From: Psammoneis japonica
Taxonomy: Eukaryota
Length of the DNA stretch: 64,000 nucleotides
NCBI GenBank assembly: GCA_008632985.1
Contig: QPGO01000063.1
Span: 310,001 to 374,000, forward strand
Direction of reading: 5' to 3'
The position numbers and the translations under genes were made by a program. The notes under the pieces were generated by a model. The model was not told the origin of the DNA. It searched no databases and was given only the letters and a program-made list of their open reading frames with translations. Of this stretch, positions 1,356-49,516 are shown one piece after another (position 1 is the first letter of the stretch; every line of letters starts with the position of its first letter).

Positions 1356-2567
1356 ATCGTTGAAGGAGCCTTGCATTAGCCATGAAGCCAAATTTGAGCA
1401 TTCTGACTTGGAGGAAGTGAAATTGACCCAATCGCATGATGACGGCAGCACTCGTACAAAAAAAGTGTCCGCGTTTTGATGGTGCTCATGGTGTTGAAGC
1501 ATTGTCATTCGTTGAGGATCGTTTTCGTAAAAATTGCTGTGAAATTGGAGCACACTGCTGGCGAGGAATTGTTCGAAAATTTCGAGGAAGTGCTTGCGGA
1601 TGCTGCAGAGGACAAGTGGGCGAACTTGACCAATGCAGTTGACGATGCCGATAAAACTGTCGAGCGTTTTGATCAGGAAATCAATCGTTTTTACTTGTCT
1701 TATTGTGATGATGAAGCGCGTGACACTTTGATTGAACATTTGCCAACTTTGAAAAAACCATTCAAATCTGAAGTGCAGGCGCATGCAGATCGCATGGAAA
1801 CCCTGATTCGGTGCTCCAACAAACTTCCAGGAAATGCTCCTCAAGTCAACGAAGCTCAGAAGAAAAAGATGATGTTCGACAGCTTTCCTCGTCCGTGGCA
1901 TGAGATGTGTGCTCGAGCAGGACGAGCGACAGCGAACGACACTCTCGCTGAGATCATCAGCCACATGAACAACGAGAAATCTTTTGCTGACAAGAGCAGC
2001 AACAAGAAGCAGGACAAGAAGAGAAAAAGCAATGGTGCTTCGTCTCAAGCTTCAAGACGCTCTCGTGGCAACAGTGGCAGAACGGATCCAGAATCTAGAT
2101 GCCCGGTGCATGCGAATCACGACCACAAGTGGAAGGATTGCATTTTGAATCCAGAAAGCCAAAACCATCGACCGAGGTCCGACCGTGGCGGTCGTAGCGG
2201 AGGTCGTGGTGGAGGCCGAGGAAACCACCAAGGTGGAGGACCCCAAGGTCAAGGCGGTCGTAGCAACTTCCAAGGTCGAGGACGTGGCAATTGCGGCAAT
2301 CAAGGAGGACATGGAGGCCGAGGTTACGGCAATTATGACAACTCCCAGAATTCTCAAGGGAATGGATCCCACTGCCAAAATCAAAACGGCACCCAAGCCA
2401 ACGGTGACACCCAAGGCCATGGAAATCCGGCTGGAGCAGCTGCTCCTGGTGGCTGGCAAATGGAGTCGCACCATTTTGATCAAGGAGGGCCTCGTGAGAT
2501 GCGAGGTGGAAATGGACACGATCAGAACGGTCGCACCCATCAAGGCCAACGAAGTTGGCGCAATTGA
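1345..2567 (+). pseudogene. gag: gag of Ty3/gypsy (frameshifts in poly-A runs near 1460 and 1530)
   Basis: Capsid-like region, CHHC knuckle CPVHANHDHKWKDC and RGG-rich C-terminus. The N-terminus is distributed over more than one frame, joined at A homopolymers. Confidence 0.8.
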
Positions 2568-5500
2568 CAAGGGACGGAAGTGCCCGAGTCAGAGCGTGTC
2601 GCTCAATCTTTTTATGTTTCGTGTGATCGTGAAGAAAACACATGTTTTAATGTTGATGACAATGTGGGAGACCTGATGGAATCTTGTGCTGTGAATGAAG
2701 AAAAATTGGGCGGCGTTTTGGAGTGCGCTGCACCAACCCCTAAAACCATGACTCCTGAACCATTGAATGTGGTGCCAACGACGTTGATGGCGGTGCGTGC
2801 CATTCAAAATCAAGAGAGCAAGCGAGTGTCACGAGTGCCATTGGATTCAGGAGGTGCTGACACTCTCATTCATTCTCGAGTTTTGCCGAAGGGAACGAAT
2901 CCAACCATGAACGATGAAGGACGGTTGAGCTTTCAGACGGCAGCCGGACGATGTGAATCCTCCCGATGCGTTGTTGTGAAGGACTTGACATTGCCAGAAT
3001 TTGACAAGTCAAAACAAGTCGACAGCATTGCGGCTCAAGTATTTGATGCCCCATGCAAGTGTGATTTAATTTTGGGACAAGACTTTTTGTCGAAAGCCGG
3101 AATCGTGCTTGATTTTCGATTTGGAATGATGAAGTGGTTGGAAACGTCGATCCCAATGAAGCAATCCAATCATTGGAACTCAGTTCAGAATTGGTTGGAT
3201 GCACTGGAAGATGACGGAGAGGACGAAGACGATGAGGGAGCCTTCGGACAATCTTTTATGATGGACACCAAATGCGAGAAAGTGTCATCCGCGAAAGTGG
3301 CGCAAGCTCAAACTCACTTAACTCAAGAGCAACGTGATGAGCTACAGGCAGTGCTTGAAAAGCATGAAACCCTCTTTGATGGAATGCTTGGCAAACATCC
3401 GCATGAGACTGTTCACTTGGAAGTTGATCCCAACGCTGTTCCCTTCCATTCTAAGGCTTGCGAAGTGTCCAAGAGGGATGAAGCCGTTTTTAAGAAAGAA
3501 CTGCAACATTTGTGTAACATTGGCGCATTGGAGCCAGTGGGACCAACTGAATGGGCAGCCGGAACTTTTGTAACTCCCAAAAAGGATGGACGAGTTCGAT
3601 GGGTGTCCGATTTTCGAGAGTTGAACAAGGCACTCAAACGAAAGGTCTATCCTCTGCCGATCATTCAAGACGTTATTCACCGACGCTCGGGATGCAAGTG
3701 CTTGACCAAGTTGGACCTCACTGTGTTTTATTGTCACATCGAGCTTGACGAAGAATCCAAGGATTTGTGTGCCATTGTTGCTCCGTTTGGAAAATTTCGA
3801 TGTTGTCGATTGGCAATGGGTTTGAAAACCTCTCCTGACATTGCTCAAGCCATCATTGAAAAAGTGGTAAAAGGAATCGATGTTGAAACTTACATTGATG
3901 ATATTGCTCAATTTGATGATTCGTTTGATGCTCACATGCGTCGACTCGATGAGCTGTTGTCCAGACTAGAAGAGAACAATCTAAAAATTAACCCACTCAA
4001 GTGCGAATGGTGTGTCCAAGAGACGGATTTTTTAGGCCATTGGCTCACGCCTGCAGGAGTCCGACCGTGGAAGAAGAAAGTGGAAGCGGTGCTACGAATG
4101 CAACCACCTAAAACTATGATGCAACTGCGATCGTTTGTTGGTGCGGTGACTTATCATCGCAACATGTGGCCTCGTCGTTCACACGTGCTCGCTCCACTCA
4201 CGAAGTTAACAGGCAAGAGCAAGTTGGAATGGACCCCTGAATGTCAACGAGCCTTTGAAGACATGAAAACCTTAATGCTGGACGACACCCTTTGGGTCTA
4301 CCCGAATCACAACAAGCCATTCCATGTTTATGCTGACTCTTCAGACTGTCAGATGGGAGCCGCAATTATGCAAGACGGGAAACCAGTAGCTTGCTGGTCC
4401 CGAAAACTCAGCGCAGCACAACAGAACTGCTCTACGATTGAAAAAGAATTATTGGCGGTGGCAATGTGTTTCAAAGAATTTCAAAGCATGTCATTTGGAG
4501 CTGACTGTACTGTTTTTATGGATCATAAAAATCTCACCTTTCGTACGCTCAATTCTCAACGAGTTCTCAGGTGGCGACTCTTCTTGGAAGATTTTGCCCC
4601 AACTTTTGAATACGTTGATGGCAAAGATAATCTCTTGGCGGATTGTTTTTCAAGATTGCCGCGCATGGACCCTCCTACGGAAGGGAAGTGTGCTCCTAAC
4701 AAGGGCAAACTGATTGATTTTAAAACCATCGACCCTGCTGTGCTGCCGCATGAAGAAGAACTGGACGACCAAAACAGTGTGTCTTGTTTTTCCTGTCGTC
4801 GTGAAGAACCATCTCCATTTTACTCTTCCGTCGTGGACGACCCCGAATTGTGTGAATCATTTTTGAACTGTCCTTCTCTCGAGGAAATGCAAAACCCTGC
4901 AACCATGCAATGAATTCAAGAACACCAATTCATCGACGTGGAGCTGAACAACATGCGACAACAATGTCCAGAACGCTTCATGGTGGAACATGTGAATCAG
5001 CGTCCTGCAATTTGTTGTCGTGCTCGACCGAATGATCCTCCGACTGCGTGGAAAATTTGTGTTCCAACGGCGTTGCTGCATGATGTCATACGATGGTGTC
5101 ACAGAATTTTGGGACATGCAGGAGTGCACCGAATGCATTCCACTGTTGGCGCACATTTCCATCATCCTGCCCTTCGTCAATCCTGTGAAAGATTTCATTG
5201 TGCCAATTTTCAACGTTTGAAAACTTTGGGCCCTGGATGTGGGGACCTGCCTGAACGGGAAGCGCCTTTGTTGCCATGGACAGAAGTTGCGGTTGACCTC
5301 ATCGGTCCCTGGAAAATTGAAATTCAAAACCATGAAATCGAATTCAACGCTTTGACTTGCATTGATGCCGTTTCGAATGTGACTGAACTTGTTCGCATCG
5401 ACAACAAAACCTCATCTCACATTGCTCAACAATTTGAAAATTGTTGGTTGTCTCGTCATCCTCGTCCGAACCGGTGCATCCATGACAATGGTGGAGAATT

Positions 5501-6062
5501 CATTGGAGAGGACTTTCAATTGTCATTGCAACGAGCAGGAGTGGAAGACGCTCCAACTGCGTCGCGAAACCCACAAGCCAATGCGGCATGCGAACGCATG
5601 CATCAAACTGTTGGAAATGTCTTGCGCACTTTGCTTCATGTTTGTCCTCCACAGAATGTTGAGCAGGCTGATCAACTGGTGGACAATGCATTGGCAACCG
5701 CCATGCATGCAATGCGATGTGCGGTTTCTCGTGCTCTCAAGATTTCACCCGGTGCCATGGTTTTTCAACGTGACATGATTCTTGACTTGCCGGTCCTGGC
5801 CGATCTTGCCACCATTCAAGAACACCGACAAGCGATTGTCAATGCGAATCTCCGTCGAGCCAACGCTAAACGCCGGTCCTGCGATTTTCAAGTTGGTGGA
5901 CACGTTCTACTCAAGGCCATCGACCCAACCAAGCTCGAGCCACGAGCTCACGGTCCATGTCCTGTCGTTCAAGTCCACGCTAACGGTGCGATTACGGTCC
6001 AACGTGCACCTCATGTGACGGAACGATTGAATGTTCGTCGTGTCGTCCCGCATCGCACCTGA
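2568..6062 (+). pseudogene. pol: pol (protease, RT, RNase H, integrase) with in-frame TGA at 4911-4913
   Basis: PLDSG protease, YIDD RT, ADSSDCQMG/EKELLA RNase H, and integrase VDLIGP..HDNGGEF..CERMH, with GPY/F degraded to GPC. ORFs 2580-4913 and 4938-6062 are in the same frame. Confidence 0.95.
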
Positions 6063-6174
6063 GGTTAAGGGTTTTCTCCCCAACATTTGGGTTTCCCTTC
6101 TATCCTCATCCATTGGAATTTAAATTTTTTGAGTCCCGCATGATTCTCGACACTCGAATCATGGAAGGGAAGAG

Positions 6175-6336
6175 TGCAGTGTCTCGCACCTTATTTTTCT
6201 GACATATAGCATTAATGACCCTATTAGATATAACGGAAGCCGTTGTAACGGGCTTCGCTGAAAGCGACCCTCGTTACCTCGGTCTTTCGCTCACAATTTT
6301 GTTATCACTGAAGTCTTTATCTCGTAAAACCTTGCA
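6175..6336 (+). repeat. 3' LTR
   Basis: Matches 949-1110 and is preceded by a polypurine tract. Confidence 0.97.
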
Positions 6337-9188: not shown

Positions 9189-9843
9189 CACTGCAAACAA
9201 AATCCTCAATCTTTAAAGGCACCAACTCTGGGACACACGCTCCATCAGTGCAGTGTCCAGCAGCACGTTCGACAACACAAGACGCATTCCAGCTCTGGGT
9301 GGGACCTCGCACCGGTGCCACTGCACTGTGACATCAACAGTTTTTTGGATCGCGTCGCATGTCGCGCACACACATTTCTGCGTGTTGTGTTCTACAAAAT
9401 TGTTTCATGCTCCCTGTTTTGCGAAGCCAAAGGCTTTCTATTTTCAACATTTGTGTGAGAACAAAAATGCGCTGGGTGTGTTCTACAATGTCTGCAGAAC
9501 ACACCCGGGCAAACCATTGCAAACAAAATCCTCAATCTTCAAAGGCATCAACTCTGGGACACACGCTCCATCAGCGCAGTGTCCAGCAGCACGTTCAACA
9601 ACACAAGACGCGTTCCAGCTCTAGAGGTGGGACCTCGCACCGGTGCCACTGCACTGTGACATCAACAGTTTTTTAGATCGCGTTGCATGTCGCGCACGTG
9701 CATTTCTGCGTGTCACATTCTATGAAATTGTTTCATGCTCCCTGTTTTGCGAAGCCAAAGGCTTTCCATTTTCAACACTTGTGTGAGAACAAAAATGCGC
9801 TGGGTGTGTTCTGTGATGTCTGTAGAACACACCCGGGCAAACT
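9189..9843. repeat. Tandem duplication of about 325 bp (flank plus left part of MITE)
   Basis: 9189-9514 is repeated at 9515-9843, and many of the differences are TA/TG/CA or CG/TG/CA. Confidence 0.85.
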
Positions 9844-10013
9844 GTTGATGATGTGCTCCAAGTGTGAAGGAGGAGATGCGTTCGTAAAATTGCCTCTTTT
9901 TCTGTTGGCGATCATTTGCATTTTCATTGCAGCACAAATTTGCTGCAGAGCTCGCACGTAGAATTCTGCGGGCCCAATGTCACATGGAGTCCCACCTGGG
10001 ACTGGAACCCATC
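9607..10013 (+). mobile_element. MITE family A (about 400 bp, TIR GACG.GTTCCAG, 4-bp TSD ACAA)
   Basis: gacgcgttccag...ctggaacccatc flanked by ACAA on both sides. Related copies lie at 9281-9514 (truncated), 58427-58832 and 63302-63697. Confidence 0.85.
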
Positions 10014-10899
10014 ACAAGCTGCTCCATTTGGCCCAGCATTGCAGACACAACTGTTGGCATCTCCTTTGTGACCACAGATGTTTTTGGTGCAATCGTTGCC
10101 ATCGTCACAATCAGCATCGACACAACACCTGCAACGGCGACAATCGGGCATTCCCAGTGGTGAAGAAACAATTTTCCCAATTGTGCCGGTGCCTTCAGGC
10201 TGGTGATCCACATCCAGGTGTGGATCCCAGAAACCAGCTGGACAAACAATGGGCCCATGTTTGGGGGGTTCAAACAACCTGGAACACATCACAGCATGTT
10301 CAGCAGTGCACTTGCACAACCAGGACATTGGGTGCCAAAATCCACCAAGCATGCTTGTTTGCACTGTTTGGGAGTGAGGCAATCATCACTTTGACAGATC
10401 TTGCAGATGTGTCCATTGCCATCTTTGAAATTGACAAAGCCAACATGTGTGCGATGGCAGCCACATCCGATGTTGGGGAGACAACAGTCATCTGGCATTC
10501 AAGTTGCATGCCAGCCATGCATGTGCCATCCTCACACCTTTCAGCTCCATTGCCTGTGCACTCAACACAACCAAGAAACCTGTCACATGTTTCTTCAGGT
10601 TGGCAGACAAGCTCCATTCCAGCCATGCACATGCGGTCATCCCCGCATGTTCCTTTCCATTGCAGACATGTCCGTCATCGCATTCATTGTCGTGGTGCAT
10701 CTGTGGCTGGCAGGAGGCACAAAAGGTTCAAGGTCCTTTTTGGTCCTGAGATGCCCACGCTCCTCCTTAAGGGACATGGCTCTGCCCAAGACAATCACAG
10801 CAAAGATCGCCTTGGTGAAGTTCATTGTCGCAAAAACTTGGCTGGTGTTTCGTCTGCTGTTTTCAACCACTGACAAATCATTGTGGACATGATGGTGGC

Positions 10900-13800
10900 A
10901 CAACAATTGCAACAGCAGGCAATGTCAAAAAGGAAAGAAGGGCAGCCAGTTCAATGTGTTTTGATGAATGAATCCAAACAAAATGTCCACAAGTGTCAGA
11001 CAGCACTGTGGGGCAGCCAATTTCACAAGACAAATGAAACAATTTGAGCCGTAGCCACGATCAACACCATCGCAACGAGTGATGAGTTGCCAGATTTCAA
11101 AACAGTCAAGCAAGCTGTGACATGTGTGAGTGACAAGGGAAGCCACCATGGGCATTTTTTTTCAGAATGTCTGTGTGGTCCAATGTGCGCATTCCCGGAA
11201 ATCCACACTGTGCATCAAACTCAAAGGTTCTCCCCAGTTGACGTGTGGAGGCATGCTCCACCTCATCTTCTCCAAGGCAAAGATTCTTTAAGAAGATGCA
11301 GGAATGCATTGCCTTTGTCATCAATGTGCCCTTTGCAACCACATTGTCCTTCACGAGCTGGAAGTGGGTCTTCACCATTGAATCTTTGCAATTTCAATCG
11401 ATGGCATGCTTGAGTTTCCTGGCATGTGACTCTGTTGTCAGGACTGTCTTCAAAATCCATGCTGGAGCACACCAGTGGTTGCATTGCACCCCATTTTTTG
11501 GCTTGCAGGATGTCATTGAAAATGGAGCAGACAAGTTTGTGATCTTCCCTTCATGGCTTGTGATTGCAATTGAATGCAGCACAGTGCAGGCATCCCCCGA
11601 GCTCATCACCATGTGTTCTGATTGGTTCTTTGTGCAAAGCTTCATGGTCCAATGGGCACAATGAGCATGCACACCCCACTTTGCCATCACCATGGAGTTC
11701 CAACCACTGGTCATGCATCTCTTTGTCCAACTTCTTTGAGTGCTCCTCTTGTCTCTTTGCTCCTCTCTGCAGGCATTCTTGGAGGTGAGTTGGACAATGG
11801 GGCACATGCTTTTCCACAGTGTGCTCACCATGAATGTTGCAGCAGCACCTTTGAATCATCTGCTTTGGAGGAAAAACTTCAGAGCATTCTTTGCAAAGAG
11901 CTTGCATTTTGGGATTGATCAGAGTGTTGGGCATTCCCAGTGAGTGCTGGTGTGGGTCCTGCCTTGCATTCTGTGACAGTCACAATTGCTGTGGTGAGTC
12001 CCATCCTTTTTCTTAGAAAAATTGGAGCTCTTCCTTCAAGGCATCTGGAACAACTTGACGGCAGATTTCCCATTTCATGGTCATCCCTCACATTTCTTCT
12101 CCTCTCTTTTGTTGCTCTGCTCTGTTTCTTCTCTCCTCTCTGATTGCATTTTGTGCCCACGTTGCATGGCAGGACATGTGTTTGCATGAATCCCTCTGGG
12201 AGGACGAGTTTTTGTGGGGATGTCAACTTTTCAAATGTGCTCATCTGCCTGTCAACATTTGTGCAGTGACATGACACACCACCCTCCCAGATGGTGGGAG
12301 ACATTTCCATGTCATGCCAGCATGTCACAGGCCCACCCCAGCCAACCCTTTTATGCTCAACTGCAGGAACACATGCAATGATGATTTGAAATCAAAAACC
12401 ACCATTTTCGGTGGCATGCCAACTTGCTTGCATCATCAAGCCTCTTCAGTTGAACCCAACATTGTGTCATTCTTCAGCACTCATTGTTTTTGCCATGGCG
12501 CACTCCTTTTTTGATTCGGACTTGGACAATGACTCCATTGGCTCAGATGAATTTAGGCATTGTCCCAGCAATGACAATGAGGACATCTCTAACATGCCGT
12601 CACTCACTGCACGGCAGCCCAATCTCAATGTGTCGGATGATGAAGATGACAACAATGTGACAAACCCACACTGGCCACTGCCACCAATGCACATTGCACA
12701 GCTGTTGCTGCTGCTGCTTTGTGTCAGGATGAAGCCAACAAAGAAAACCCTCATGATCACACAGGAGATGGCTGGCATCAAAATGGTGGTGACAATTTTG
12801 ATGCACAAGAGGAAGAGAAGGAGGACAACAATGCCCTGCTGTGTGACTGCACTGGCCTGCACAACATGCTTGGTGTTGTTGACATGGCATTTTTGGGGTT
12901 GGAGTCAGAGTGGAAAAGCCCTGTCATCATGCCCATTTCCATTTCAGTTGCCAAGGGAATCCCACCATCCCATTTTGTGGAAGATGACATCGCTGAGCAT
13001 TTGGGCAGCAGCTTGCAGGCAAATCTGCACAAAGGTGCTCTCACTCATTTTGACACTTTGAAACACCCCCTCCACCACCACACTGGCCAAGGGCTGCAGC
13101 AATGCCAAATCAAAAAACAGCGTGTTGTGTGCAGACCTCCAATTGCTTGGCCATGCTTCAGGATTTGAAACAAAAGCCAACAGCTCCAGCCTCATCCTTT
13201 GAAAATCCCATCTCAAGCACACTCATGACAAAGACCAGACTCTTCACCAGCAAGTTCTCTTGGGAACTTGAATGACTTCAAAGTCTCGACACTGGGTGAG
13301 GAGCTTGTGCTCATGTCAACCTTCATGTTCACATGCCAAGCTGTCTCGTTCAATTCCAGCAATTCACAAGGGAATCTGTTGACAACACATTCAAGCATTC
13401 TGGCATTGTCTTGTCCAGGCAAATGAACAGCAAGAGCCTTCATGCCAATGCACTCAAACAAGGGAGCATCCTCAAAAATGGCATCTCAAAACTCTCGCTC
13501 TTTGTGGTTGTCTTGTCTTGCTTCTTCTCCCTGACAAATGTGAGACTCAAAGTGTCTCTCTCTGGAGTGCTCTGCCAAGCTGTGTGGAGTAAAAGATCAC
13601 AAGCTCATGGTGCTGCATGTGCAGTGAGGAGCAAGCAAGTTGCTGGGAAAGTGTGAGGAACACAAGGCTTGTCAGCTGTTGCAAGGACACATTGTGTGCA
13701 CATTTGAAGCAACACAAAAAAGCTGTGAAAGTGTGTGGCACGCAAGTTTGTCTCCAACAAGTCATTTGATTGACACTTTGAAGTCTTCAATTGCAAGGTT

Positions 13801-16800
13801 TTTGCCCACAGAAGAAACATCAAATGCCCAAAATGCAGCAAACTGACAAATGTGCTAAAACAGAAGCCCTGCACTTCATTGATGCTCAGACTTGCTTGTT
13901 GTTGACATGATCTCTGGATCAGCAGCAGATTGTGCTCAGGACAGGCCCTCCTCCTTCCAGCAGCTCAGCATGCTGATGCCACTTGTTCTTGTTCCACACA
14001 AACAAAAAAGAGCTTCAATTCTGGGGAGCTGTTTCATCAAGATTGGCACCCAATTTTGGTTGGCTTCAAGCTGCAAAGCTGCATTGTGGCATGCAATGGG
14101 GAGTGAACCTGCCCCCGCACTCACAAATCTGCCCTGCTGGATTTGACAGATGAAGGCAGCAGTGAATGAAGAGGATCCAAGAGGACAGCTTCCACCTGCA
14201 ATGGCTCTTGTCAAAAAACAATGGCTTCAGCCACCGGATCAATCGGCGGATGAGTTTTGGGTCACAGCAAGAGCCACTTTGGTTGCTCTGAGAGGTTTGC
14301 TTCTGTGGCAATTCAGACCACAACCGATTCTCCTGTCCAACAATGTTGCAAGAGCTTGTGCAAACAACCTGCTGGCATGAGTGGACGAGGCATGCTGAAA
14401 CTAGCTACACTGCAGGTGTGCACATTCCAGCTCTGGCAGTGGCAGCTCTCAAATTGTCAGTTTCACACTGCAGCAGTTAAGGCCTCAAAACGCCTTCAAA
14501 ATCACTGTCGTTGCATCACAAGAGTGTGAAAAGGATGGCAACCAACACGTCACGAACATTCAGACACCATCTCTAGACATGAATGTTCCTGTTCCTTCCC
14601 AAAAGATTGGCGACAAAGGATTTGCCAACCATTCAGATGTTGGTGCACCGGCATGATCAATCGTGCAAGAAGCATCGTGACCTGTTCTCCCAGTGCCATT
14701 CTGCCATTCCGACCAAGCTTTGTAAAACTTCCACAGAGCACAGGTCAAACAATTGAACAGATCATCACATGAATGATCTAGAGTTCAATGCTGCTTTCAA
14801 AGTGGAGAGAATCCAAGGAACCCTGGTTGCCACGGAAGCTTTGTTTCTTGCTCAGCCCATCAGTTCTTGAAAAGATTCTCACATCCAGGCTTGACTGGGG
14901 CCACCCAGCTCTCTTTGGATGCACCCAGCACAGCTGGGGACACAGAGCTTAGTCTCTGGTGCAATTCTCTGTGGCTGTCGAGTTGTCTCCACACAAAGCT
15001 TCAATGCACTGTTGCAGCCAGGGCACTTGGCATTTTGACTCTTGTTCTGTGGCAGAAGCATTGAGAGTTGAGTGCCAGATGAGCAAAGAGCACAAGACAT
15101 GGAAAAAGGGAGCACACAAAGCAGCTTGCAGTGTGCTTTTTCTGGTGGCAGCAATCTTTGTGTGTGCAGGTGTGCATGTGTTTTATGACTGATGCACATT
15201 TTTGCAAAAATCAATGCTGCATCCACAACAAGCCAAAGGCCCCCCACCCAAACACCCCGGGTGCTGTTGCATCAATCAGATCTCAGCAAGTTTGATGGAA
15301 ATGAGATGTGGGTTCATGGCCACACATCATGCCAAATGTTGAAATGGGCTGTGGCTTGGCATGGCATGACTGCAGCATTGGAGATCAAACATGAATTTCA
15401 AACTGCCAGCTGATTTCCAGGGGGGCATCTTCCAAAATGCCAAGTCCACATCAACCCCTGTTGTGTTGCCCAACATGCCCAAGACAACAACAGCTTGTCC
15501 ATGAGCCATTCAATGTGCTGACAGTTGAGCCGGCTACTCTGTGTGCACATGGTTGTTTCAGCTGTTTGCCATCATTCTTGTTTGACAGCAACAACTTGCC
15601 ACTGCATCATGTGGTGTGATGGCCACCCTGTGCTGCACAAAAATGGCATCACCCCCAATGAAAGCAATCAGGCAATGACACAATTCTGTCATGGCCAACA
15701 AAGTGCATGCCAAACCATGCTTTCAGACTTCCAAGTGGCAGAGCGGGCTTGCAGTGTGGCTCAGAAAGCCTTTGTGAATCACAAAATTCTCCAGTGAAAG
15801 AATTCACAACCTTGGAGGAAGAAAAAATGCCAATTGGACCCGGTGCAATGATGTCAATTCTTGCAAGAGAGATTGTGAGATGCTTCATGAAAAGCTGCAA
15901 GCAAAGGAGATGGTTGTGGCTGCTTTGATGAGCCAATGCATTGAAAAGCTGAGAAAGTGAGACAAGCTGCTTACAGAGCTCAATGTGCCAAAGAGGAACA
16001 TGGTCAACATTTTTCACTGAATCAAAGTGTTGGAAGAGTTGTTTGTCAGTGCCAAGCATTTGGTCAATGTGCAGCTCAAATTCCTCCTGAAGATCATGGT
16101 CACCTGTGCCATGCAACAATCATGATGGGAGCATGTGGAGTCATCATTGCCACAGTCATGTCACTGTAAAGCCCTGGGTGGCCCTTCTCCCCATGAAATG
16201 CTGCTTGCAAAATGCCACAATTCTCAACTGTGGCAATGAGTTTGACAACTGTGCAGTGTTTGCAATGCCAGTCAGAGAGTGCCTGCAACAACAGCAATGA
16301 TCACCTGGCAAGACAAAAAAACGGCACTGCCACAAACTTCTCACACAGGTTCAAGGAGAGCACCATTGGTCTCAGATGATTTTGACAGCTCATGCCTTCC
16401 TTGTGAGGCAAGCTTCCCCATTGAAACAACTGAAAAGTGCCACAACAAGGGAAACTCTTGCCATTTCATGAGTGCAGAATCTGGCACAAAGAGGCCCTCT
16501 TTGCAGCCTGGCTTCATTTTTGTCCCTGGCAATGTCTGGTGGCCTGGGGGTTTGTCACAAGCATCTTCACAAGTTTGGCTTTGGAGGGTGTGGTGCTGCA
16601 GAGACAGTGTGGTGTGACATGAGTGATCAGGACAAACTTCGGGTGGGTGGGACAAACAAACAATGTGCCAGGACCTCTGCACCTGACATCTGCACAATGA
16701 CCAATTTTTTTGCATTGCTTGGCAAAACACCTGCACGCACCTCATCAACTTTTTGAAGACAAGCTGTGCTCATTGCCAACAAATTTGGGTTGAATTGATC

Positions 16801-17270
16801 TGGACAAAGCTCAAATTCCTGTGACATTGCAAGGCACATGGCACAATTGTGCACACCTTGGTTCATCACTCAATTGTGCTGTTTTGCCCCAGATGGGGAC
16901 AAGATCATGAAGCCCACTCATGGCTGCCACTCCTTTTGTCACCGTGCTCCAAGCAACTTCTGGCTGCTGGTCCTTGCCCCACCTGGCTTTGTCTGTCAGG
17001 CAGCACGCCCATCTCAAAGTTGCTTTCCAGCTGATCTTGAGGTCCTTGCTGTCTGTCTCATTTGCATCTCCCTCCTCATCTTGAGGTTCTTGCTGTCTGT
17101 CTCATTTGCACCACCCTCCTCAGTTTGTGATTGAGTTTCCTGTGCAACTCATCATCATCAATGTCAGAGGGGCCAGGGATTGCTTGGGGTGCAGCCTCTT
17201 TGACAGGTTGGGTTGGTCTGCCCTCATCCACCCAGGTTGCTTGGGGGGTTTGCTGACTTTCAACTGCTCT
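10900..17270. other. Heavily eroded TpA- and CpG-depleted relic sequence, family not assignable by eye
   Basis: Only one TA in 13201-13800. Fragmentary protein-like stretches occur on both strands. Confidence 0.6.
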
Positions 17271-17274
17271 GGTG

Positions 17275-18330
17275 CCCCATGTGTGCACTGGGCGCTGAAA
17301 AGAAGATGTGTCACGACCTTGTCGTTGTGAAAATTGTGAGCTAGTTTAGAGCAGAGAAAGTGGGATCGTGCGAATGGGGAATCTTGCCAAATCCCCATTC
17401 GTTCGCATTTGGATCGTATCAAATCGATCGTGTGTTTGCATTGTGGATCGTGCGAATCAAGCCATCACGCGCTGTGCACGAGTGATGTCATCGTGTGGAA
17501 TCACGCCACCATCGTGGGCCAGACGACGGGCTAGTGTGCTTCACACGGATGCTCTCTTAGCATCCTCCTGGAATTTCCTAAGACCTAGAGCCATGCCCTC
17601 CTGTGGTCGTGCTTCCCAGGTGCGTGTTGACAACACTGCGTTGTCATGCACAAGAGGCTCATGCACGGTCTCACCATGTTGTCCAGCAGCGAGGCATGCT
17701 GCACACTCCCCCATGATCAGGGCCGTCAAGTGACAGGATGTCTTGCTGGTGACAGGGTGCAATCTGCCGTAGATTGTGCGCATCTGTCAGCGCTCCATTC
17801 TGGGTGCGCAACGTGCCGTTGTCATGTGCACGGACAACTCTGGCGGGTCCTGCATGGCTGTCAGAACTGCATTTAGAGGATTGCTCCTGTTTGACAAGTG
17901 CCAATTGCCCTGCGGCACATTGATGCTCCTTGCGTTTCTGATTTTCACGCTTGTCATTCAAGTGGACAAGCTTCTGCTTTCTGGTTTCTGTGCACTTCCA
18001 CTCAGCACGATGGGCAACAGATGAAACCGCATCGCGTCAGGATGCTAAGAGAGCATCCGTGTGAAGCACACTGGCCCGTCGTCTGGCCCACGATGGCAGC
18101 GTGATTCCACACGATGACATCACTCGTGCATGGCGCGTGATGGCTTGATTCGCACGATCCACAATGCGAGTGCACGATCAATTTGATGTGATCCAAATGC
18201 GAAGAAACAGGGATTTGGCAAGATTCCCTGTTCGCACGATCCCACTTTCTCTGCTCTAAACTGGCTCACAATTTTCACAACGACAAGGTCGTAACACATC
18301 TTCTTTTCAGCGCCTGGCACACACACAGGG
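17275..18330. mobile_element. MITE family B with about 290-bp TIRs; TA TSD mutated to TG (left) and CA (right); Tc1/mariner-like
   Basis: 17275-17566 is the reverse complement of about 18040-18330. Flanks are TG (17273-74) and CA (18331-32). Confidence 0.85.
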
Positions 18331-18393
18331 CACAGCAACATTGCTCCCGCATGTTGTGCGAGGTGACGAAATCTGCAGAAACGAAACTACAAA

Positions 18394-19470
18394 ATGTTGG
18401 CAGGACCAACAAATCTCAAAACGACCATGAAGAAGCGGATTGAGCCGCCGATTCCGTTCGCACGGCCGGAGAAGAAAGAGCTGCAGCAGGGTGAGCACCA
18501 GACGTTCAAACTGCGCAACAACCCCACTGATCCGGATGGTCCAACGCACGAGATGGGCATCCCACACCTTTCTGCGGCTACATGCGAGACACTCCCAATC
18601 TTTCTGCGCAACGTGGATCGCGTGCACAAAGGACAAAACATGACGACCGGGCCAGCGAAATTTGCCCTTGTGCGTGACCTGTTACAGGGCGATGCTCTGA
18701 CGTCATTCAACAATGCCGCTGACAAGCAGGCATCCCAAACCAATGCTGCGTGCGCAGCATGCGTCGCGAAGCTAAAGGAAAGTGTCTTCCCACATGGGGC
18801 GGTGCCATTGCAGAAGCGTCATCTGAGGCGCTTCATGCGCAAGCCCGCAGAGGTTTCTGCTCATGACTGTGTCACGAGGGCTGTTGAAATTAACGGCCAC
18901 ATCTCTCAGTTTCCACCCGTGACGGAGGATGGAGAAGCACCGGCACCATTGCCCAATGACGAACCATGCGACATGTTCGAGTGCGGTGTGCCGAACGCAT
19001 GGCAGAAGTTCATGATGTTACAGAATTTTGACCCGTTGGCACATGCCATCGCCGAATTTGCACAGTTCTGCAAGTGCATCGAGCAGGTCGAGCTTGCCGA
19101 AGGTGACCTGGACCAACACACTAAGATTCCACGCAAGCGGGGACGTAGAACGGACAATCCTGAGTCGTTGATCACGACCCAACGGAACACCCAGAAGTCG
19201 TGCATGCCACACGGGACCAACTGTGGACATCACACGGAGGATTGCCGTCAGCTCAAGCACCACGTGAAACGTGTCAAGACTGGACATTCCAATGACGGAG
19301 GCAGCAAGCCCAATGCAAAACCTCAGAATGAGGAAGACATTGGTGCTCTCATCGGATCAAAGGTCGAGGAGTTCTGTGCCAACGCTCAGAAAAAGCGCAA
19401 GGCACGCGAGGAGGAGCTCAATCACTTCCGCGACCTCAACTCAAGTGATTCCGAAGATTCGGACACCTGA
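18394..19470 (+). pseudogene. gag: gag of second Ty3/gypsy
   Basis: 358-aa ORF with CHHC knuckle CMPHGTNCGHHTEDC and no Tyr residues. Confidence 0.8.
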
Positions 19471-22100
19471 GAAGGGGGCCGACATGACACAGGTGGTTTT
19501 GGGCACATTGGGTGAATGCACTGATGAACAATTGAATTGCCATCGTACACGTGTTGTAGGCCAATCCCGCAAACGAGTTAAAAAGACTCATCTTGCTCCA
19601 ATCTTGTTTGTGGCTGTGAACACCAAACATGGCAAGGGCAAGACTCAAACCATCAAGGCACTGCCAGACAGTGGCGCCAGCAGCACTGTGCTTGACAGTC
19701 GATGCTGCAAGCATTTGCGAAGCCGTCCAACGGCTGAGACAAACTGGGCCATGGCAGCAGGCTCGTTCAGCACGTCTGACGACTGTGCCGTTAAATTTCG
19801 GTCACCAGAATTGTCCGAAACTGCAGAACCAAGGTGGTGCAGGTACAAAAGTGGGCCAGATTCTGCGCACGTAGAGACTGGCATGTTTTCTACACAAATC
19901 GCCAAAGTCGGCTCGCCAACTTGAACCCTCTCCAGGACGATGGAAACTTGGACATTTCACGTGACAAAGTGTTTGGACCACCCAGTTGCACTTCCCTCGA
20001 CTTGTTTGTGAAGAGAAGTCACAAGTTTCCATGGGTTTCTTGTTTTGCACTGCTCTTCAAAACTTGAACGTCGCGATTTCGGCACCTTTCTGATTAGATT
20101 CGTTGCACATCCTCAGAAACCTGTGAAAACTTGTAACTTCTCTCCCTGGGCAAGTCGAGGAGAGTGTAATGAGCAGGTCGAAACACTTTGTCATGTGAAA
20201 TGTCCAAGTTTCCATCATCCTGGAGAGGGTTCAAGTTGGCGAGCCGACTTTTGTGATTTGTGTAGAAAACATGCCAAGCTCTACGTGTGTAGAATCTGGC
20301 CCACTTTTGTGCCTGCACCACCTCAAACATGCCGTCCACGCACACAACGGAAAGTTGGGCAAGTGCAACATGATCATTGGACGCGACATTCTGGAGACAC
20401 AAGGCATTGACATTGTCTTCTCTAAACAGTTGACAGAGTGGCCATCAGTCAATGGAGAAGTGCCAATGAAGCACACGGATGCTGCGGTAGAAACCTCCTT
20501 CTATCTTCAAGATCCAGAAGCCTTGTCTTCAGAAACCGACCGGATTTCACGCATTTCAGATGCTGAGCACGCGCCTGCCTGCCTCGAGGACATAACACAA
20601 GGGACAGCGGGACTTTCTAAAGTTCAACAAAATGACCTTTTGGCACCATTGAAGCGCCACGAGTCCTCATTTGATGGGACATTGGGAGAATGGAAGGGAG
20701 AACCCCACCATGTCCAACTCAAGAACCATGCCACGCTCATCCGCATGAAGTGCCTCGTGCGTGCGAAGCTGTGATGCACTGTGCAAAGAATTGGAATGCC
20801 TGGTGCGTGTCGGTGTTCTCAAACGCGTCAACCGATCCCAGTGGGCAGCTCCATCATTTGTCACACCGAAGAAAGATTTGACGGCATGCTTTGTCATTGA
20901 TGATTTGAGAGAGCTGAATAAACGGATCAAGCGATCACCTTATCCGATTCCTCACATCCAAGACATGCTACTTAGGCTCGAAGGCTTTATGTGGGCCACA
21001 TCGCTGGATTTAAACATGGGCTATTATCATATCCGATTGGATGCTGATAGCAAGAAGCTCTGCACGCTCATCTTCCATTGGGGCAAGTATGAGATGCAGG
21101 TATTGCCCATGGGATTATGTAATTCGCCAGACATTTTCCAAGAACGCATGTCAGGCTTATTTGAAGATCTATCGTTCGTTCGAACGTACTTAGATGACCT
21201 TCTCGTCGTGACGAAAGGCACCTATGAAGATCACCTCAACAAACTTGAAGAAGTTTTATTGAGGGTCCAGAAAGCAGGACTAAAAGTTAACGCAATTAAA
21301 TCTCATTTCTGTCAACCCCAATTAAAATACTTGGGTTATCTGGTCAACAGAGACGTAATACGACCAATACCTAATAAAGTCGACGCCATTAAGCGAATCG
21401 CGACCCCAACCAATAAACGCGACCTACGGTCATTTATTGGTATGGTGAACTACTACCGTGACGCGTGGATTAGACGTTCTGAAGTCTTGGCTCCGCTAAC
21501 ACGACTCGTAAGCGAGACTGTTAAGTGGGAGTGGACGTCCGTTGAAGACGAGGCGTTCGAAACCGTTAAACGGGTGATATCGGATGATGTTTTATTATCA
21601 CATCCTGATTTTAATAAACCCTTTGAGATACATACCGATGCCTCTAAATATCAATTGGGAGCAGTTATATCCCAATATAATAAACCTATCGCCTTTTATA
21701 GCAGAAAGCTTAACAGTGCGCAATTAAATTATACAACAACGTAGAGAGAATTGCTCGCCATTGTGGAGACGTTGAAAGAATTTCGAACGATTCTCCTCGG
21801 TCATCGTATACTTATATATACTGATCATAAAAATCTTACGTACAGAGTATTCAATACCGAGCGCGTTATGCGCTGGCGGTTAACATGCGAAGAATACGGT
21901 CCCAAATTACGCTATGTTAAGGGTACCCATGACCTAGTCGCTGACGCTCTTAGTCGCCTTCGGCTAGCACCCAGCTTGCCTTCCGAGGCCAATCCGGATG
22001 TAAAAGACACTCCATCAAGTCGTCCTTTGCATGAAGCTTTTAATGCAGATGCGCAAGACGATGCATCTCTGCCTGTTGGCTTCAAGTGCATTCAAAAAGA
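19471..22100 (+). pseudogene. pol: pol of second Ty3/gypsy (MITE insertion, frameshift near 20750, TAG at 21742-21744)
   Basis: LDLNMGYYHI, LPMGLCNSP, YLDD, LGYLV, AFYSRKL, NYTTT*RELLAIVE, YTDHKNL and VADALSRL. Confidence 0.92.
19833..20322. mobile_element. MITE family C (about 490 bp, long TIRs GGTGGTGCAGG...), possibly PIF/Harbinger-like
   Basis: The arms are reverse complements over more than 140 bp. Removing 493 bp restores the protease frame, consistent with a 3-bp TWA-like TSD now reading CAA/TCA. Confidence 0.85.
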
Positions 22101-22500
22101 AGATGTGCTGCGACCTTGTCGTTGTGAAAATTGTGAGCCAGTTTAGAGCAGAGAAAGTGGGATCGTGCGAACAGGGAATCTTGCCAAATCCCCATTCGTT
22201 TGCATTTGGATCGTGTCAAATCGATCGTGCATTCGCATTGTGGATCCTGCGAATCAAGCCATCACGCGCCATGCACGAGTGATGTCATCGTGTGGAATCA
22301 CGCTGCCATCGTGGGCCAGACGACGGGCCAGTGTGCTTCACACGGATGCTCTCTTGGCATCCTTCTGGAATTTCCTAAGACCAGAGCCATGCCCTCCTGT
22401 GGTCGTGCTTCCCAGGCACGTGTCAACAATGCCACGTTGTCACGCACAAGAGGCTCACGCACGGTCTCGCCGTGTTGTCCAGTGGCGAGGCATGCTGCAC
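22095..22500 (+). mobile_element. Truncated copy of MITE family B left arm
   Basis: Aligns to about 17298-17704 and lacks the terminus. Confidence 0.85.
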
Positions 22501-23940
22501 TGGGATCAATGCAGTCAGCACAGTCAGCCCTGATCAGATGCTTTCTAGATGGGAGTGCAAGTGTCACTTCTTTTAGCTTCTGGCATGGCCCACGCACCTT
22601 GTCAGCTTGATCCTGGTGGTGACTTGCCAAATGGCTTGAGGGCATTGTGCTCCAGTCCCCACGGGGGGGAGCAGATTGTGCTGCACGCATGCACAACCCT
22701 GCAGCACACTGGCACATTGAAGATTGCAGCATTTGTTCATTTTCATTGAGGGGGGTCATCCCCGCGTTCATCCTAAAATTGCCGTTGCATTTGAACAAGG
22801 TTTTTTTACAGTGTTCATTTTTGAACACAAGAATCATTCACAGTCACACCCGATCGCGCACGAAAACGAGAACCATCAACACCGCGATCGAAGCACGACA
22901 ATGATGACAATCATCGACATTTCTCAAAAACGCAGTTTGCCGTCTGCCAACTTTTCATGCACGTGCAATCTTTGACACACAACAAACATAAAATAAATGA
23001 GAGTTGGCAGACGGACCACCTCCGTCACAGACTTGTGGCTTGTTGTTTTCACCACCACGGTGAAGCACGGTGAAATTCAGGAAAAATCATGCAAAACAAG
23101 CCATTCGGCCGAATTCGAGCTAAAAAAAGCAGCAACCTGCCACCCTAAGCACAGATGCTTGCAATGATGTGTGCAGCACATTGCAAAGCCGATGCTGGGA
23201 ATGCTCTCTCCACACCACTGCACTGACCTGTGGTGCACTCAAAGCCATGCTTTGGGTGGCAATCCCAAGCTCATTGCAAGCTGGCTTCAGGAGTTTCTGC
23301 CACTCTTGTGCACTGTTTGCATGACCATTTGTGCTCATCTGGGACCTTCTTGCACATGTTGGTCTTCAACTGCTGCAATGCAGCCTGCCCAAATCTCATG
23401 ATGTTTCTTGTCAATCTGTCTGACAACCTCCAACTTGCTGAAGTGGAGCAGCGCTGCATTGAAATTTCTGGGCTCCAGCACCAACCTCTTCTTGTGGAGC
23501 TCTTGAAAGAGTCTTCCACTGTGCTGATTGCTGACCTGGTCATTCTGCCTCCAGCACACATGTGGAGAGTTGTGCAAGAAAGGGCACTCCACCACACACG
23601 TTTCTCTCAAGAAGTTGAAGAAGATTTGCATTGGTTGGCTTGGCAATTGAGTTGACTCTTGCTTTGCACAGCAAACCAAGTCTTTCAGCTGGAAAAGAAC
23701 TCTTTCTTGGTCCAGCCATTTGCAGCACATGCCTGATTCAATTTTTTGCCTCTGCCATGTTGAATCTTTCCTCCTTGCCTCCACTTGCCAGTCATGTTGA
23801 AAAGCAATTGATGAATTGATGCTTGTCATTCATCAGAAAAGTGCTGTTTTGTTTTTGTTGTGGTTTTGTTGCCACGATTTGAACATTGTCACTGATCATG
23901 GTGGCACTGGACACCGGTGCTGGACAGAACCACTGAGATC

Positions 23941-24117
23941 GAACCAGCAAAAGATCCTGTCCGTGTGTGTTGGTTTGTCTGCAAAATCTTTTTTCGCGTG
24001 ATCTGGAGTCTTGCACAATTTTGTGTGACTGACAACTTGTCCCACAATCTGGTTGGGTCAAACAAGTCAAATTTGATGGCTGGATTTCATTCAAATCTCT
24101 GCATCAAAAACACACTC
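23941..24117 (+). repeat. Degenerate duplicate of the RAD52 upstream region (24857-25035)
   Basis: Shared blocks tgtgttggtttgtctgca, caatctggttgggtc and tggatttcattcaaatctc. Derived changes include tttaacgg>tttgatgg and gtcgaacgag>gtcaaacaag. Confidence 0.8.
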
Positions 24118-24119
24118 CT

Positions 24120-24833
24120 TTCATTTTTTGCCTGCTTTGCATGTTTGCGCCGTGATGGTGAGTTCACAGCACCGTGCTTGTTTTGGTGCACTGGGCTGAT
24201 TCTGCCAGTGCTGGCATGACATCATGTTGTGTGCACCACACACTGGAGTGAGCTGCAAGTGTGGGAGCTTTGAGCTGTGGGACCTGGTGCCTCTTCATTG
24301 CTGCCAGCAGAGCACCAGCTTTGTCATTTGATCACTCCAACTGTGCTGAGGGCACAAGGACAGGGCTCTTGTTCTTGATGCTGTGAGTCACAAGGTTTGT
24401 TCTTCTCTTTTCACCTCTGCCCTGCAATGAGTGCATCTAACTTTTCAGAGGACTTGCCCTTGGCAAACACTTCCAGTTCTTTTTTTCCCTGGCTGCTTCG
24501 ATGACAACATGACAAGGACTGATGCTGGCTGGATTGCCGGGGTGGCTCATCTTGAGGTTTTTGAATGACATGCAGAACAGAGCTCTGGAGATGGCATCTT
24601 TGTTCACATTCACTCCTCCTGCATGAAGCAATCTCGAATTGAAAATGCCGCAGCATCCCGCAGGCAGCACTCTCCAAAAACAGGGGGTGCTGTCCTCAGC
24701 AAGCAACACTCTGGGCTCTCGTCACCATCAGGAGGAATCAACTCTCATCCTTGAATGATTTATGTGCCTTCTGAGTGTGAGTGCCAGGCAACCATGCGGT
24801 TGGTCCCATGTCTTCCGAGACATCTTGAAGTGA
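24120..24833 (-). pseudogene. Partial duplicate (3' third plus 3' flank) of the PhyH gene at 32978-34150
   Basis: Aligns to about 32708-33403 (LPAGCCGIFNSRLLHAGG...EKLDALIAGQR*) with frameshifts and TA>TG/CA, CG>TG/CA changes. Confidence 0.93.
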
Positions 24834-24903
24834 TCATCATCACGATCAATCGATCAAAACAGCAAACGATCGTGTCCGTGTGTTGGTTTGTCTGCAGAAT
24901 CTT

Positions 24904-25086: not shown

Positions 25087-26602
25087 ATGTCCAACGTCAC
25101 AAATCTGACGGCAGCGTCATGTCCCACCTCGACTACTCCAAGACCGGTACATCAAGTGTCGGCAGAAGTTGCTGCCATGGAGTCACACGCCAAACAAACG
25201 TATCGTCCACCGGGAAGTCAACATTCCGCAATGTCGTCGGAACATCAACACGCTGTTCCGGTAGAATTGGTACGAAACGCCGATGGAACTCCGCTTGTTG
25301 ATTCCAAGGGTCAAATTGTTTCCGTCGACAAAATTTTGGCGACAAAACCGCTCCGCCATGAGTTGAGCAGCCGTCCGGGTCCGGGAAATCGCAAACTCAC
25401 GTACTTGTCGGGCGAAGGTGTGACTCGCACACTCAATGACATTTTTGGGTACAGCGGATGGAATCTCGACATCAAATCAACCAAGCGAGAAGAATGCGTC
25501 AAGGACGACAAGGGACGCTATCATGTGGCGTATACTGCAACGGTACGATTGACCTTGTGCAAATCGGGAGCGTACAAGGAAGACTGTGGGGCGGGAGATG
25601 CAATCGATCGGTCTTTGGGAACAGCGGTAGCGAATGCACTCAAGGCTTCCGTGACGGATGCTATGAAACGAGCAGCGAGGCATTTTGGTGATAAGCTTGG
25701 GAATTGTGAGTGCAAATAATTGATTCGTAGTTGTCGTCGTGAATAATTACATTATTTCGCTCACGTTCTTGATATCTTTTTCTTTCGGATTCTCAGCTCT
25801 CTACAATGGAAATTTCAGCATGAACAAAGCACCCACCTCTCTTCAAAATGCTCTCGACCAGTATGATATCGATCGAGCCAATACAAAGTTTGGGTTTCCA
25901 AAAGATCGTGTTGCAAAGGCTAATGTTCAGACAAATAACGCTTCGACCGTACAGAAACAAACTAATACCTCCCAGCAAAAAACCGGCAGCTCATCTCAGG
26001 CTCCAGTCACTTCCACCCCAATCACTGCGACTACAAAAACAAGTGTACTCAAGCCACCGCCGGCACGTGTCAGCATGGGAAACACTGCCAGCAGGCAAGC
26101 TCTGCCATATCAGCCGACACCGGGCCCTTCCGACAACCAAAACAATCGTCCAATGGTCACGCCTCAACCACCACAAACTTCGCAATACCAGAAACCCACT
26201 ACTGTTGGTATTAAAGTTCCTCAGTCAAAGCCACCACCACCACCACAACAACAGCAGGGCCAACCCAAGGTTCCTCCCTTTCAGTCAAAGCCGACAAGTA
26301 TGAGCCAGTCGAATACTACCCAATCGCAATCCATCAAACCCATCTCTGCTCGAGAAAGTCTCGAGTCAAGTGGTCTCTTTGATTTGTCCATGTTTACAGC
26401 CGGAACCAAAACGACGGCTCTGCAAGGCAACAATGAAAATATTCACCCATACGACATGCCTCGTCCCGCCACGTCCACGGGACGGGGCCCCATGGCTGGC
26501 AAAAAGAGGACGACAGCGTCGTCTTGTCAAGAAGCAGAGACTCGCAGCAAGAAACAACCATCCGATGGGGTCAGCAATCCCTATCTTGCAAATAGTTTGT
26601 AG
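25087..26602 (+). CDS. RAD52: DNA repair/recombination protein RAD52 (exons 25087-25705, 25797-26602)
   Basis: Rad52/22 domain RPGPGNRKLTYLSG...NDIFGYSGW...VTDAMKRAARHFGDKLGN|SLY joined across a GTGAGT...CAG intron, followed by a Pro/Gln/Thr-rich disordered tail. Start codon uncertain. Confidence 0.93.
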
Positions 26603-49500: not shown

Positions 49501-49516
49501 AGACCATTTGCTAAAT

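Follow-up and report, generated by a model that had tools for sequence, protein, structure and literature searches.

The 64-kb window analysed here (64,000 nucleotides of Psammoneis japonica contig QPGO01000063.1, positions 310,001 to 374,000 of the forward strand) has lost the dinucleotide TpA from a set of kilobase-scale domains, and the TA steps left behind are biased by the bases around them. With R for a purine and Y for a pyrimidine, YTAR persists best, RTAY is nearly gone, and the mixed contexts YTAY and RTAR lie in between. The rate of loss depends on two bases on each side of the TA, the bias strengthens with the depth of erosion, the effect is restricted to TpA, and neither strand is favoured at the level of whole domains. 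This leftover bias is probably the footprint of a TpA-specific A:T>G:C process whose rate depends on the flanks.

Over the full window, the observed/expected ratio (o/e) of TA is 0.25, accompanied by an excess of CA and TG (o/e 1.55 and 1.56). The loss is domain-wise: some 1-kb bins hold 1-7 TA, with CA and TG o/e up to 2.0, and neighbouring bins hold 40-80. DNA with at most 4 TA per 500 bases was masked as depleted (34,748 bases) and DNA with at least 13 per 500 bases as TA-normal (17,065 bases), leaving 12,187 bases of intermediate DNA. In the depleted mask, TA o/e is 0.05, CA and TG reach 1.77 and 1.79, AA and TT stand at 1.21 and 1.20, and GC content remains steady at 0.47-0.49. The ratio of CA to TG is 0.83-1.20 across the nine domains examined; CA thus equals TG in every domain, and both strands must have been affected alike.

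The flank bias was initially noticed by eye, in a sequence-only reading of one interval within one of these domains:

11000-17000, unstranded: interval under study, 19 TA (10 YTAR, 5 YTAY, 4 RTAR, 0 RTAY)
9925-17308, unstranded: deeply eroded domain enclosing that interval, TA o/e 0.01-0.11, CG o/e 0.07-0.30 and CA/TG o/e 1.65-2.0 per kb

All eight sites cited in that reading are TA steps in the contexts given for them (TTAG at 12014, 12554 and 14950; CTAA at 12590 and 13856; CTAG at 14402, 14574 and 14779). Measured against normal-DNA shares, at least 10 YTAR among the 19 TA of this 6001-base interval has p=0.0012, and 0 RTAY has p=0.0026. Window-wide, the 125 TA of depleted DNA comprise 67 YTAR, 52 mixed and 6 RTAY, compared with 148, 411 and 205 of 764 in TA-normal DNA and 60, 84 and 29 of 173 in intermediate DNA. 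The contrast of YTAR with RTAY between depleted and normal DNA gives a Fisher odds ratio of 15.5 (p=2.7e-16), and survival over all 16 NTAN contexts, whose flatness had been named beforehand as the refutation, is far from flat (chi-square 103.6, 15 degrees of freedom, p=2.7e-15). The claimed bias to YTAR thus holds, as does the near absence of RTAY (0/19 in the interval, 6/125 in all depleted DNA). The word ‘mostly’ does not hold in the sense of near-totality: YTAR makes up 53-54% of survivors, and the rest are YTAY or RTAR. With 11000-17000 set aside, the bias was repeated in each of nine mask settings (three window sizes by three thresholds), with odds ratios from 13.6 to infinite and p<=3e-6. 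It holds where CG is intact (46 YTAR, 55 mixed and 9 RTAY of 110) and also where CG is lost (39, 30 and 2 of 71). YTAR survivors are at least as numerous as RTAY in all seven deep or TA-low domains, and the 6 RTAY survivors are confined to less eroded ones.

Transitions keep the purine/pyrimidine class, so that counts of R-YR-Y, Y-YR-R and the like are unchanged by erosion and provide a natural denominator; depleted and normal DNA indeed have similar purine/pyrimidine 4-mer totals. As a fraction of all Y-R steps, TA then amounts to the following:

R_Y flanks: 0.208 in normal, 0.042 in intermediate and 0.003 in depleted DNA
Mixed flanks: 0.187 in normal, 0.055 in intermediate and 0.012 in depleted DNA
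Y_R flanks: 0.149 in normal, 0.081 in intermediate and 0.034 in depleted DNA

Survival in depleted DNA is therefore 1.4% for RTAY, 6.4% for the mixed class and 23% for YTAR. (These percentages, the hazard ratios, the share of RTAR products and the pooled paralogue retention given below are hand calculations.) The mixed class falls close to the geometric mean of RTAY and YTAR (5.7%), which is what independent action of the two half-sites of a TA step would give. The hazard ratio works out at ∼2.9 for deep and ∼2.6 for intermediate DNA.

A logistic fit with tied half-sites, and with bootstrap intervals in brackets, resolved the contribution of each upstream base (log-odds):

Position -1: A -1.13 [-1.55, -0.85], G -0.23, C +0.49, T +0.87 [0.64, 1.16]
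Position -2: A -0.66, G -0.12, C +0.08, T +0.70
Position -3: A +0.11, G -0.22, C -0.19, T +0.30

The main effect is that of A (bad for survival) against T (good) across two positions, of which purine against pyrimidine is a coarse rendering. By half-site, the counts in depleted and normal DNA are 0/102 for TATA, 4/128 for AATA and 67/117 for TTTA, the most persistent. Folded tetramers follow the same gradation (depleted/normal):

Most depleted: ATAT 0/63, ATAC/GTAT 2/96, ATAG/CTAT 2/78, GTAC 4/46
Intermediate: ATAA/TTAT 13/123, CTAC/GTAG 15/114, GTAA/TTAC 22/96
Best preserved: CTAG 10/39, TTAA 21/42, CTAA/TTAG 36/67

The proposal that A>G is favoured at TAY hence survives as a coarse summary, in line with the survival order and with the lean of products in six deep domains described below. 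It is too simple as a rule, since the dependence is graded, with a second-position effect, and is not a matter of R versus Y.

Duplicated sequences within the window allow individual changes to be followed. Two pairs are informative, the second involving an eroded copy of a PhyH-type gene region at 24140-24834:

17295-17704, plus strand: repeat copy, paired with 22092-22500
32728-33404, unstranded: uneroded counterpart in the PhyH-type gene region, TA-normal, 21 TA

The two repeat copies share 91.6% nucleotide identity and 99.5% purine/pyrimidine identity. Y-R steps account for 32 of the ∼36 substituted bases, the others being 3 transitions and 1 transversion; the Y-R differences comprise 11 CA/TG, 2 CA/TA, 2 TA/TG, 4 CG/TG and 2 CA/CG sites. 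In the eroded gene copy, 19 of the 21 TA steps have been converted (9 to TG, 10 to CA), one is kept (a CTAA) and one is deleted. One TA occurs in the eroded copy alone (TTCATG > TTTATG). In both the young repeat pair and the gene with its eroded copy, A:T>G:C transitions are confined to TpA. Pooled over paralogue pairs, TA is retained per copy-site at 31/64 for Y_R flanks, 42/136 for mixed flanks and 19/76 for R_Y flanks.

The erosion can also be read in protein, through a retrotransposon gene in the window:

2580-6062, plus strand: Ty3/gypsy pol (reverse transcriptase, RNase H, integrase), one in-frame stop at 4911-4913

In an alignment of this pol with 40 homologues (42-62% identity), 26 columns are at least 60% tyrosine. 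The expectation that Tyr codons would be hardest struck is borne out: at these columns the window carries Tyr 7 times, Cys 13, His 4 and Phe 2 (Cys versus His, binomial p=0.049). Other conserved residues are kept (C 15/17, H 15/18, W 15/15). Tyrosine is retained at 6/13 codons that follow a pyrimidine and at 1/11 that follow a purine (p=0.08). TA loss within the element is patchy (1551-3241 and 4862-5871). Its frame is almost open, with the single stop noted above, and the YIDD motif is kept despite the loss of 19/26 conserved tyrosines.

These observations establish that flanks matter; whether they act on the strand that is mutated is a separate question. If A>G is favoured at TAY, which is the same as T>C at RTA, then RTAR should become RCAR and YTAY should become YTGY. 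In domains depleted of both TA and CG, the excess of R-CA-R and Y-TG-Y over R-TG-R and Y-CA-Y is larger than in normal DNA by 0.100 of Y-R steps (0.049 to 0.149 by block bootstrap), and RCAR exceeds RTGR, and YTGY exceeds YCAY, in 6/6 deep domains. About 78% of RTAR would have gone to RCAR if CG decay is symmetric, close to the 74% predicted from the hazard ratio. CG survivors in depleted DNA are flank-neutral (41 RCGY, 37 YCGR and 77 mixed of 155, against 219, 216 and 470 in normal DNA), so CG decay should feed both products equally. In the paralogue pairs, direction was as predicted in 6 cases and opposite in none for R_R flanks (CA 6, TG 0), and 6 to 8 for Y_Y flanks. The four direction tests, made on the both-depleted domains, the TA-low domains with normal CG, the paralogue pairs and the conserved Tyr codons of the gypsy pol, all lean as predicted, one of them strongly. 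From these products, it appears fairly likely that the flank acts on the mutated strand, TAY being the preferred site of A>G. Sequence does not distinguish A>G on one strand from T>C on the other.

Several points weigh against this reading and bound its reach. The whole analysis covers one 64-kb window and 125 surviving TA in depleted DNA. The asymmetry in deep domains assumes equal products of CG decay and an ancestral CA/TG asymmetry equal to that of normal DNA. In domains that are low in TA with normal CG, the share going to R-CA-R is 0.57 [0.35, 0.76] and is not significant; nor is the overall 12 predicted to 8 opposite in the paralogue pairs, some of which share copies. A per-tetramer test of products against the normal-DNA baseline was noisy, with ATAG and ATAC running against the prediction. 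TA losses do not equal CA plus TG gains in several classes, its Spearman coefficients on 6 classes (0.26 in CG-normal and 0.71 in both-depleted domains) are not significant, and it was dropped as baseline-limited. In the gypsy pol, R-preceded Tyr codons became Cys and His in the ratio 8:2, where the half-site model expects ∼1:1. Finally, conversion of TATA to TGTA or CATA refills those classes (TGTA 26/110, CATA 10/87) and so accounts for part of the difference between A and G at position -1 and of the T effect at position -2 before a purine. The -2 T effect before a pyrimidine (TTTA, TCTA) cannot come from this source.

The closest rival holds that the flanks act on the TA step as a whole duplex, through DNA shape or flexibility or through symmetric recognition of RTAY, without choosing between TG and CA. 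It would anticipate the multiplicative behaviour of the mixed class just as well, and it gains from the 8:2 ratio of Cys to His at R-preceded Tyr codons and from the lack of significant direction in CG-normal domains and in the paralogue pairs. It has no ready account of products that lie above their mirror images in 6/6 both-depleted domains, where CG survivors are flank-neutral, nor of the RTAR steps in paralogue pairs that went to CA 6 times and to TG 0 times, and we regard it as unlikely. A more distant rival supposes that the leftover TAs are new, created by C>T or G>A at CA and TG with a bias to YCAR and YTGR. Some deep-domain TAs must indeed be new, as the TA found only in the eroded gene copy attests. 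Nonetheless, intermediate DNA, which retains about a quarter of its TAs and in which creation is negligible, already shows the shift, and this points to differential loss and not to differential creation. The flanks of CA and TG are near uniform in depleted DNA, so the supply of precursors has no YTAR preference and cannot be the cause. The lone survivor in the gene and its eroded copy is ancestral, and even with regeneration the equilibrium count would mirror a context-dependent rate of loss. We therefore give this account very little credence.

Ancestral composition devoid of RTAY, or selection that retains TAA and TAG stops, would produce a similar remainder, in that YTAR carries TAR, the form of a stop codon, on both strands. 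RTAY is, however, common wherever erosion is absent: uneroded transposable element (TE) parts have 47 YTAR and 39 RTAY of 177 TA, open reading frames (ORFs) of genes have 32 and 50 of 176, and other normal DNA has 36 and 94 of 289. The bias is hence not ancestral composition, as the like 4-mer totals in depleted and normal DNA also argue. Selection on stops fares no better, because only 1/105 ORFs in depleted DNA has a credible Pfam match and there is no sign of coding constraint. Both versions are hardly tenable. Least probable of all are the known sources of A>G, namely mutagenesis by DNA polymerase eta (Pol eta) at WA, where W is A or T, or ADAR-type editing of retroelement RNA that is copied back into DNA. 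Both yield A>G. A plain Pol eta signature does not fit, as had already been argued from AA: AA and TT are undepleted, and few transitions in the young pairs fall outside Y-R steps. ADAR favours a 5′ U and a 3′ G, whereas here G after A is not favoured and the order of loss is T > C > G > A. Hyper-editing of RNA would also leave single-strand tracks; CA equals TG in each of the nine domains, and a gene fragment that is not a TE is affected as well.

The interval 11000-17000 lies in one of about seven domains of the window, itself 7.4 kb long. On the favoured reading, a flank-dependent TpA process has probably turned some 95-99% of the TA steps of these domains into TG or CA on both strands, with a slower and flank-neutral CpG decay confined to the same domains. 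The target on the A>G strand would read 5′-T-A-N-N-3′, where the first N is graded T > C > G > A and at the second N a T is favourable and an A unfavourable; the same rule on the other strand would be T>C at 5′-N-N-T-A-3′, with A the most and T the least favourable base. TA is a palindrome, and its two half-sites would act roughly independently. Given such independence, the earliest contexts to disappear would be ATAT, ATAC/GTAT and ATAG/CTAT, and the latest TTAA and CTAA/TTAG. The usual fate of a Tyr codon (TAY) would be Cys (TGY).

We infer that the agent is an enzyme acting on DNA, for example one that deaminates adenine or one that modifies thymine. The sequence is compatible with deamination of A to inosine, read as G, at 5′-TA[T>C>G>A] and equally with a change of thymine read as C at 5′-[A>G>C>T]TA. 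A fuller picture can be offered as a tentative possibility: a repeat-directed enzyme of algae in the SAR group (stramenopiles, alveolates and Rhizaria) that would rewrite TpA in double-stranded DNA with the footprint 5′-TA[T>C>G>A][T>S>A] (S being G or C), serving genome defence as a mirror image of repeat-induced point mutation (RIP). We know of no established natural enzyme that turns A:T into G:C, for instance by adenine deamination, at a set dinucleotide in chromosomal DNA.

To date, a single preprint, on a single alga, has reported TpA hypermutation. In Bigelowiella natans, TpA-only hypermutation of integrated viral and TE-like DNA is described, with de novo TpA mutations ∼1000-fold above background, roughly 230 of them in Table S2 (Mettrop et al., bioRxiv 10.64898/2026.01.13.699255); its section 11 proposes an ADAT2-like adenine deaminase as the agent, and its main text contains no flank analysis and does not mention diatoms. 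Set against what the preprint reports, the window likewise has its A>G and T>C transitions restricted to TpA and localised in foreign or repeat-like DNA, and it shows long-term TpA depletion with clustered enrichment of CpA and TpG. The systems differ in their hosts and targets, a chlorarachniophyte with integrated viral and TE-like DNA in the preprint and here a diatom-like window in which retrotransposons, repeat families and a duplicated gene fragment are struck. The depletion is also far deeper here, with a TA o/e of 0.05 against 0.45 in the Bigelowiella region of nucleocytoplasmic large DNA virus (NCLDV) origin, and it contains a nested CpG decay. The process in the window matches TpA-only hypermutation of the Bigelowiella kind, to which the flank rule adds a new quantitative descriptor. 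A full-text search of the published literature returned no TpA flank rule, no TpA hypermutation besides that preprint, and none in diatoms.

Comparison with other systems is instructive. Like RIP in Neurospora and other fungi, the process consists of dinucleotide-specific transitions in repeats, on both strands, domain-wise and with a neighbour preference. RIP converts CpA to TpA, leaving DNA rich in AT and introducing stop codons; in the window it is TpA that is destroyed, A:T goes to G:C, TAA and TAG stops are erased and long, empty ORFs persist. Fungal RIP was accordingly rejected on the TA, CA and TG ratios and the GC content of depleted DNA given above. Retroelement editing by ADAR or APOBEC works on a single strand, either RNA or minus-strand cDNA, where it yields clustered transitions in strand-asymmetric tracks. 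It resembles the erosion described here in its clustered, retroelement-inactivating transitions, which in ADAR and APOBEC are deaminase-driven, and differs from it in the equality of CA and TG in every domain and in the involvement of DNA that is not retroelement-derived. TadA and ADAT2-ADAT3 target an adenine that follows U or T (U33-A34 of tRNA; UACG for TadA), their natural substrates being tRNA loops, and a target A after a 5′ T in the window fits this U33-A34 geometry. BjADAT2, the one eukaryotic ADAT2 for which a measured DNA context is known, prefers GAA for adenine and TCG for cytosine when expressed in E. coli, and cytidine deamination by both BjADAT2 and adenine base editors (ABEs) prefers a 5′ T (PMC10354150). 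The GAA context reported there does not match the TAT/TAC preference of the process in the window.

The quantitative flank rule shows a sequence-selective process rather than general decay. It provides testable predictions for candidate enzymes and enables dating and modelling of eroded DNA. It also explains how eroded diatom transposons can keep long open frames and yet lose their tyrosines, which is relevant to gene prediction: after the loss of TAA and TAG, dead DNA has the look of open reading frames, by which gene callers could be misled. If a SAR-algal enzyme is at work, its natural activity would be adenine deamination or thymine modification in DNA, it would erase stop codons, unlike RIP, and the flank rule would be its specificity fingerprint. 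A signature shared by Bigelowiella and the metagenome relative described next would then suggest an old and widespread system.

Relatives of the Vps39-like protein encoded in the window were sought in metagenomes. An alignment query recovered 23 loci of 47-62% identity (179,765 bases); with the single protein as query, the same scan gave no match. Three of these loci (L014, L015 and L016) stem from one organism, are 99.9% identical to each other and have 59% identity in the Vps39-like protein. They carry one depleted 1.4-kb patch (L014:12000-13500, equivalent to L015:3500-5000 and L016:5250-7000), with TA o/e of 0.10-0.11 and CA/TG o/e of 1.6-1.96, directly downstream of the Vps39-like gene; L016 departs from L014 inside it, after L014:13374. 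The 13 TA of the L014 patch are 6 YTAR, 6 mixed and 1 RTAY, compared with 103, 259 and 118 of 480 in the rest of L014, a small sample in the same direction. The 9 ORFs of the patch had no Pfam match. In the other 20 loci, no 1-kb window has a TA o/e below 0.38.

Within the 64-kb window, the remaining depleted domains and their contents are as follows:

17309-20000, unstranded: TA-low, CG-normal repeat block; depleted-mask TA 5 YTAR, 6 mixed, 2 RTAY
22216-24678, unstranded: depleted domain that includes the eroded PhyH-type gene-region copy (24140-24834); 5 TA, all YTAR
29298-32115, unstranded: depleted domain; 7 YTAR, 4 mixed, 0 RTAY
39968-46469, unstranded: depleted domain; 11 YTAR, 9 mixed, 0 RTAY
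46932-53446, unstranded: depleted domain; 13 YTAR, 10 mixed, 0 RTAY
50621-51013, minus strand: copia-type reverse transcriptase fragment inside 46932-53446, the sole recognisable coding relic among the ORFs tested
55979-62676, unstranded: depleted domain; 10 YTAR, 12 mixed, 2 RTAY

The domain 9925-17308 itself holds 18 TA in the depleted mask (9 YTAR, 9 mixed, 0 RTAY). Gene ORFs lie in TA-normal segments, and gypsy parts, repeat families, the copia relic and the duplicated gene fragment lie in depleted ones; erosion thus strikes foreign or repeat-like DNA locally and spares the host genes. Conversion of TA to TG or CA can only remove TAA and TAG, so eroded DNA keeps long open frames: depleted DNA has 105 stop-to-stop ORFs of at least 100 amino acids, among which the single credible Pfam match is to RVT_2 (E=5.5e-7; 29.9 bits, below the 31.6 cutoff). 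None of the 23 such ORFs in 9925-17308 has a Pfam match below E 0.01, with only noise at E 0.015-0.03. When the gypsy proteins encoded in the window served as tblastn queries on its own sequence, the deep domains yielded no eroded gypsy copies.

The loss of CpG is strictly nested in that of TpA: the 22,974 CG-low bases include 0 in TA-normal or intermediate DNA. Between 9 and 13 kb are low in TA with normal CG (for example 1551-3241, 4862-5871 and 17668-19641), and both dinucleotides are low at, for example, 11301-17154 and 41016-51649. Since CG loss is found only within TA-depleted DNA, erosion of TA seems to come before that of CG, and the decay of CpG has the look of a distinct and slower process. 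The window was also compared with contigs of run X1, in which rare variants are not visible and for which 40/340 variant places were listed, a number too small to build a context spectrum. Over 10006-17000, there are 15 listed differences, 8 of them CG versus TG or CA and two forming one CA-to-TG double change at 15600-15601; none is a simple TA change. These differences would fit ongoing or polymorphic CpG decay once TA is exhausted, with allele, strain and error indistinguishable. One X1 contig links 10014 straight to 17273 and omits 7258 bases, its supporting side comprising just 29 letters. The two positions coincide exactly with the limits of the deep domain and of the repeat families on either side, a hint that the 7.26-kb block 10014-17273 may be an insertion. 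No terminal repeats of this putative insertion were found (best local score 18.2-18.4, against a shuffle maximum of 21.6).

Other features of the window are as follows:

938-1110 and 6164-6336: short repeats that go with the Ty3/gypsy element
20253-22000: second gypsy reverse transcriptase fragment

Among the ordinary genes are those for a PhyH-type dioxygenase, an ankyrin protein and the Vps39-like protein, which has a coatomer-gamma-type platform domain. Best matches of the Vps39-like ORF reach 77% identity, the sole named match (‘Leptocyl...’) has 52%, and the gypsy homologues include one labelled Cyclotella meneghiniana; on these matches, ‘diatom-like’ is a fair though unproven description of the window. 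The repeat family of block 17309-20000 has further copies at 22092-22500 and 18039-18333. An inverted repeat of ∼500 bases (19829-20326), palindrome-like, adjoins the second gypsy fragment; its arms share 80.6% nucleotide and 91.7% purine/pyrimidine identity. Finally, the short repeat families at 9189-10013 and 17272-18333 are very abundant in X1: over 9339-10005 and 17343-18676, the summed contig depths, which are not copy numbers, are ∼72,000 and 26,000-30,000, respectively, compared with ∼59 for the unique deep domain.

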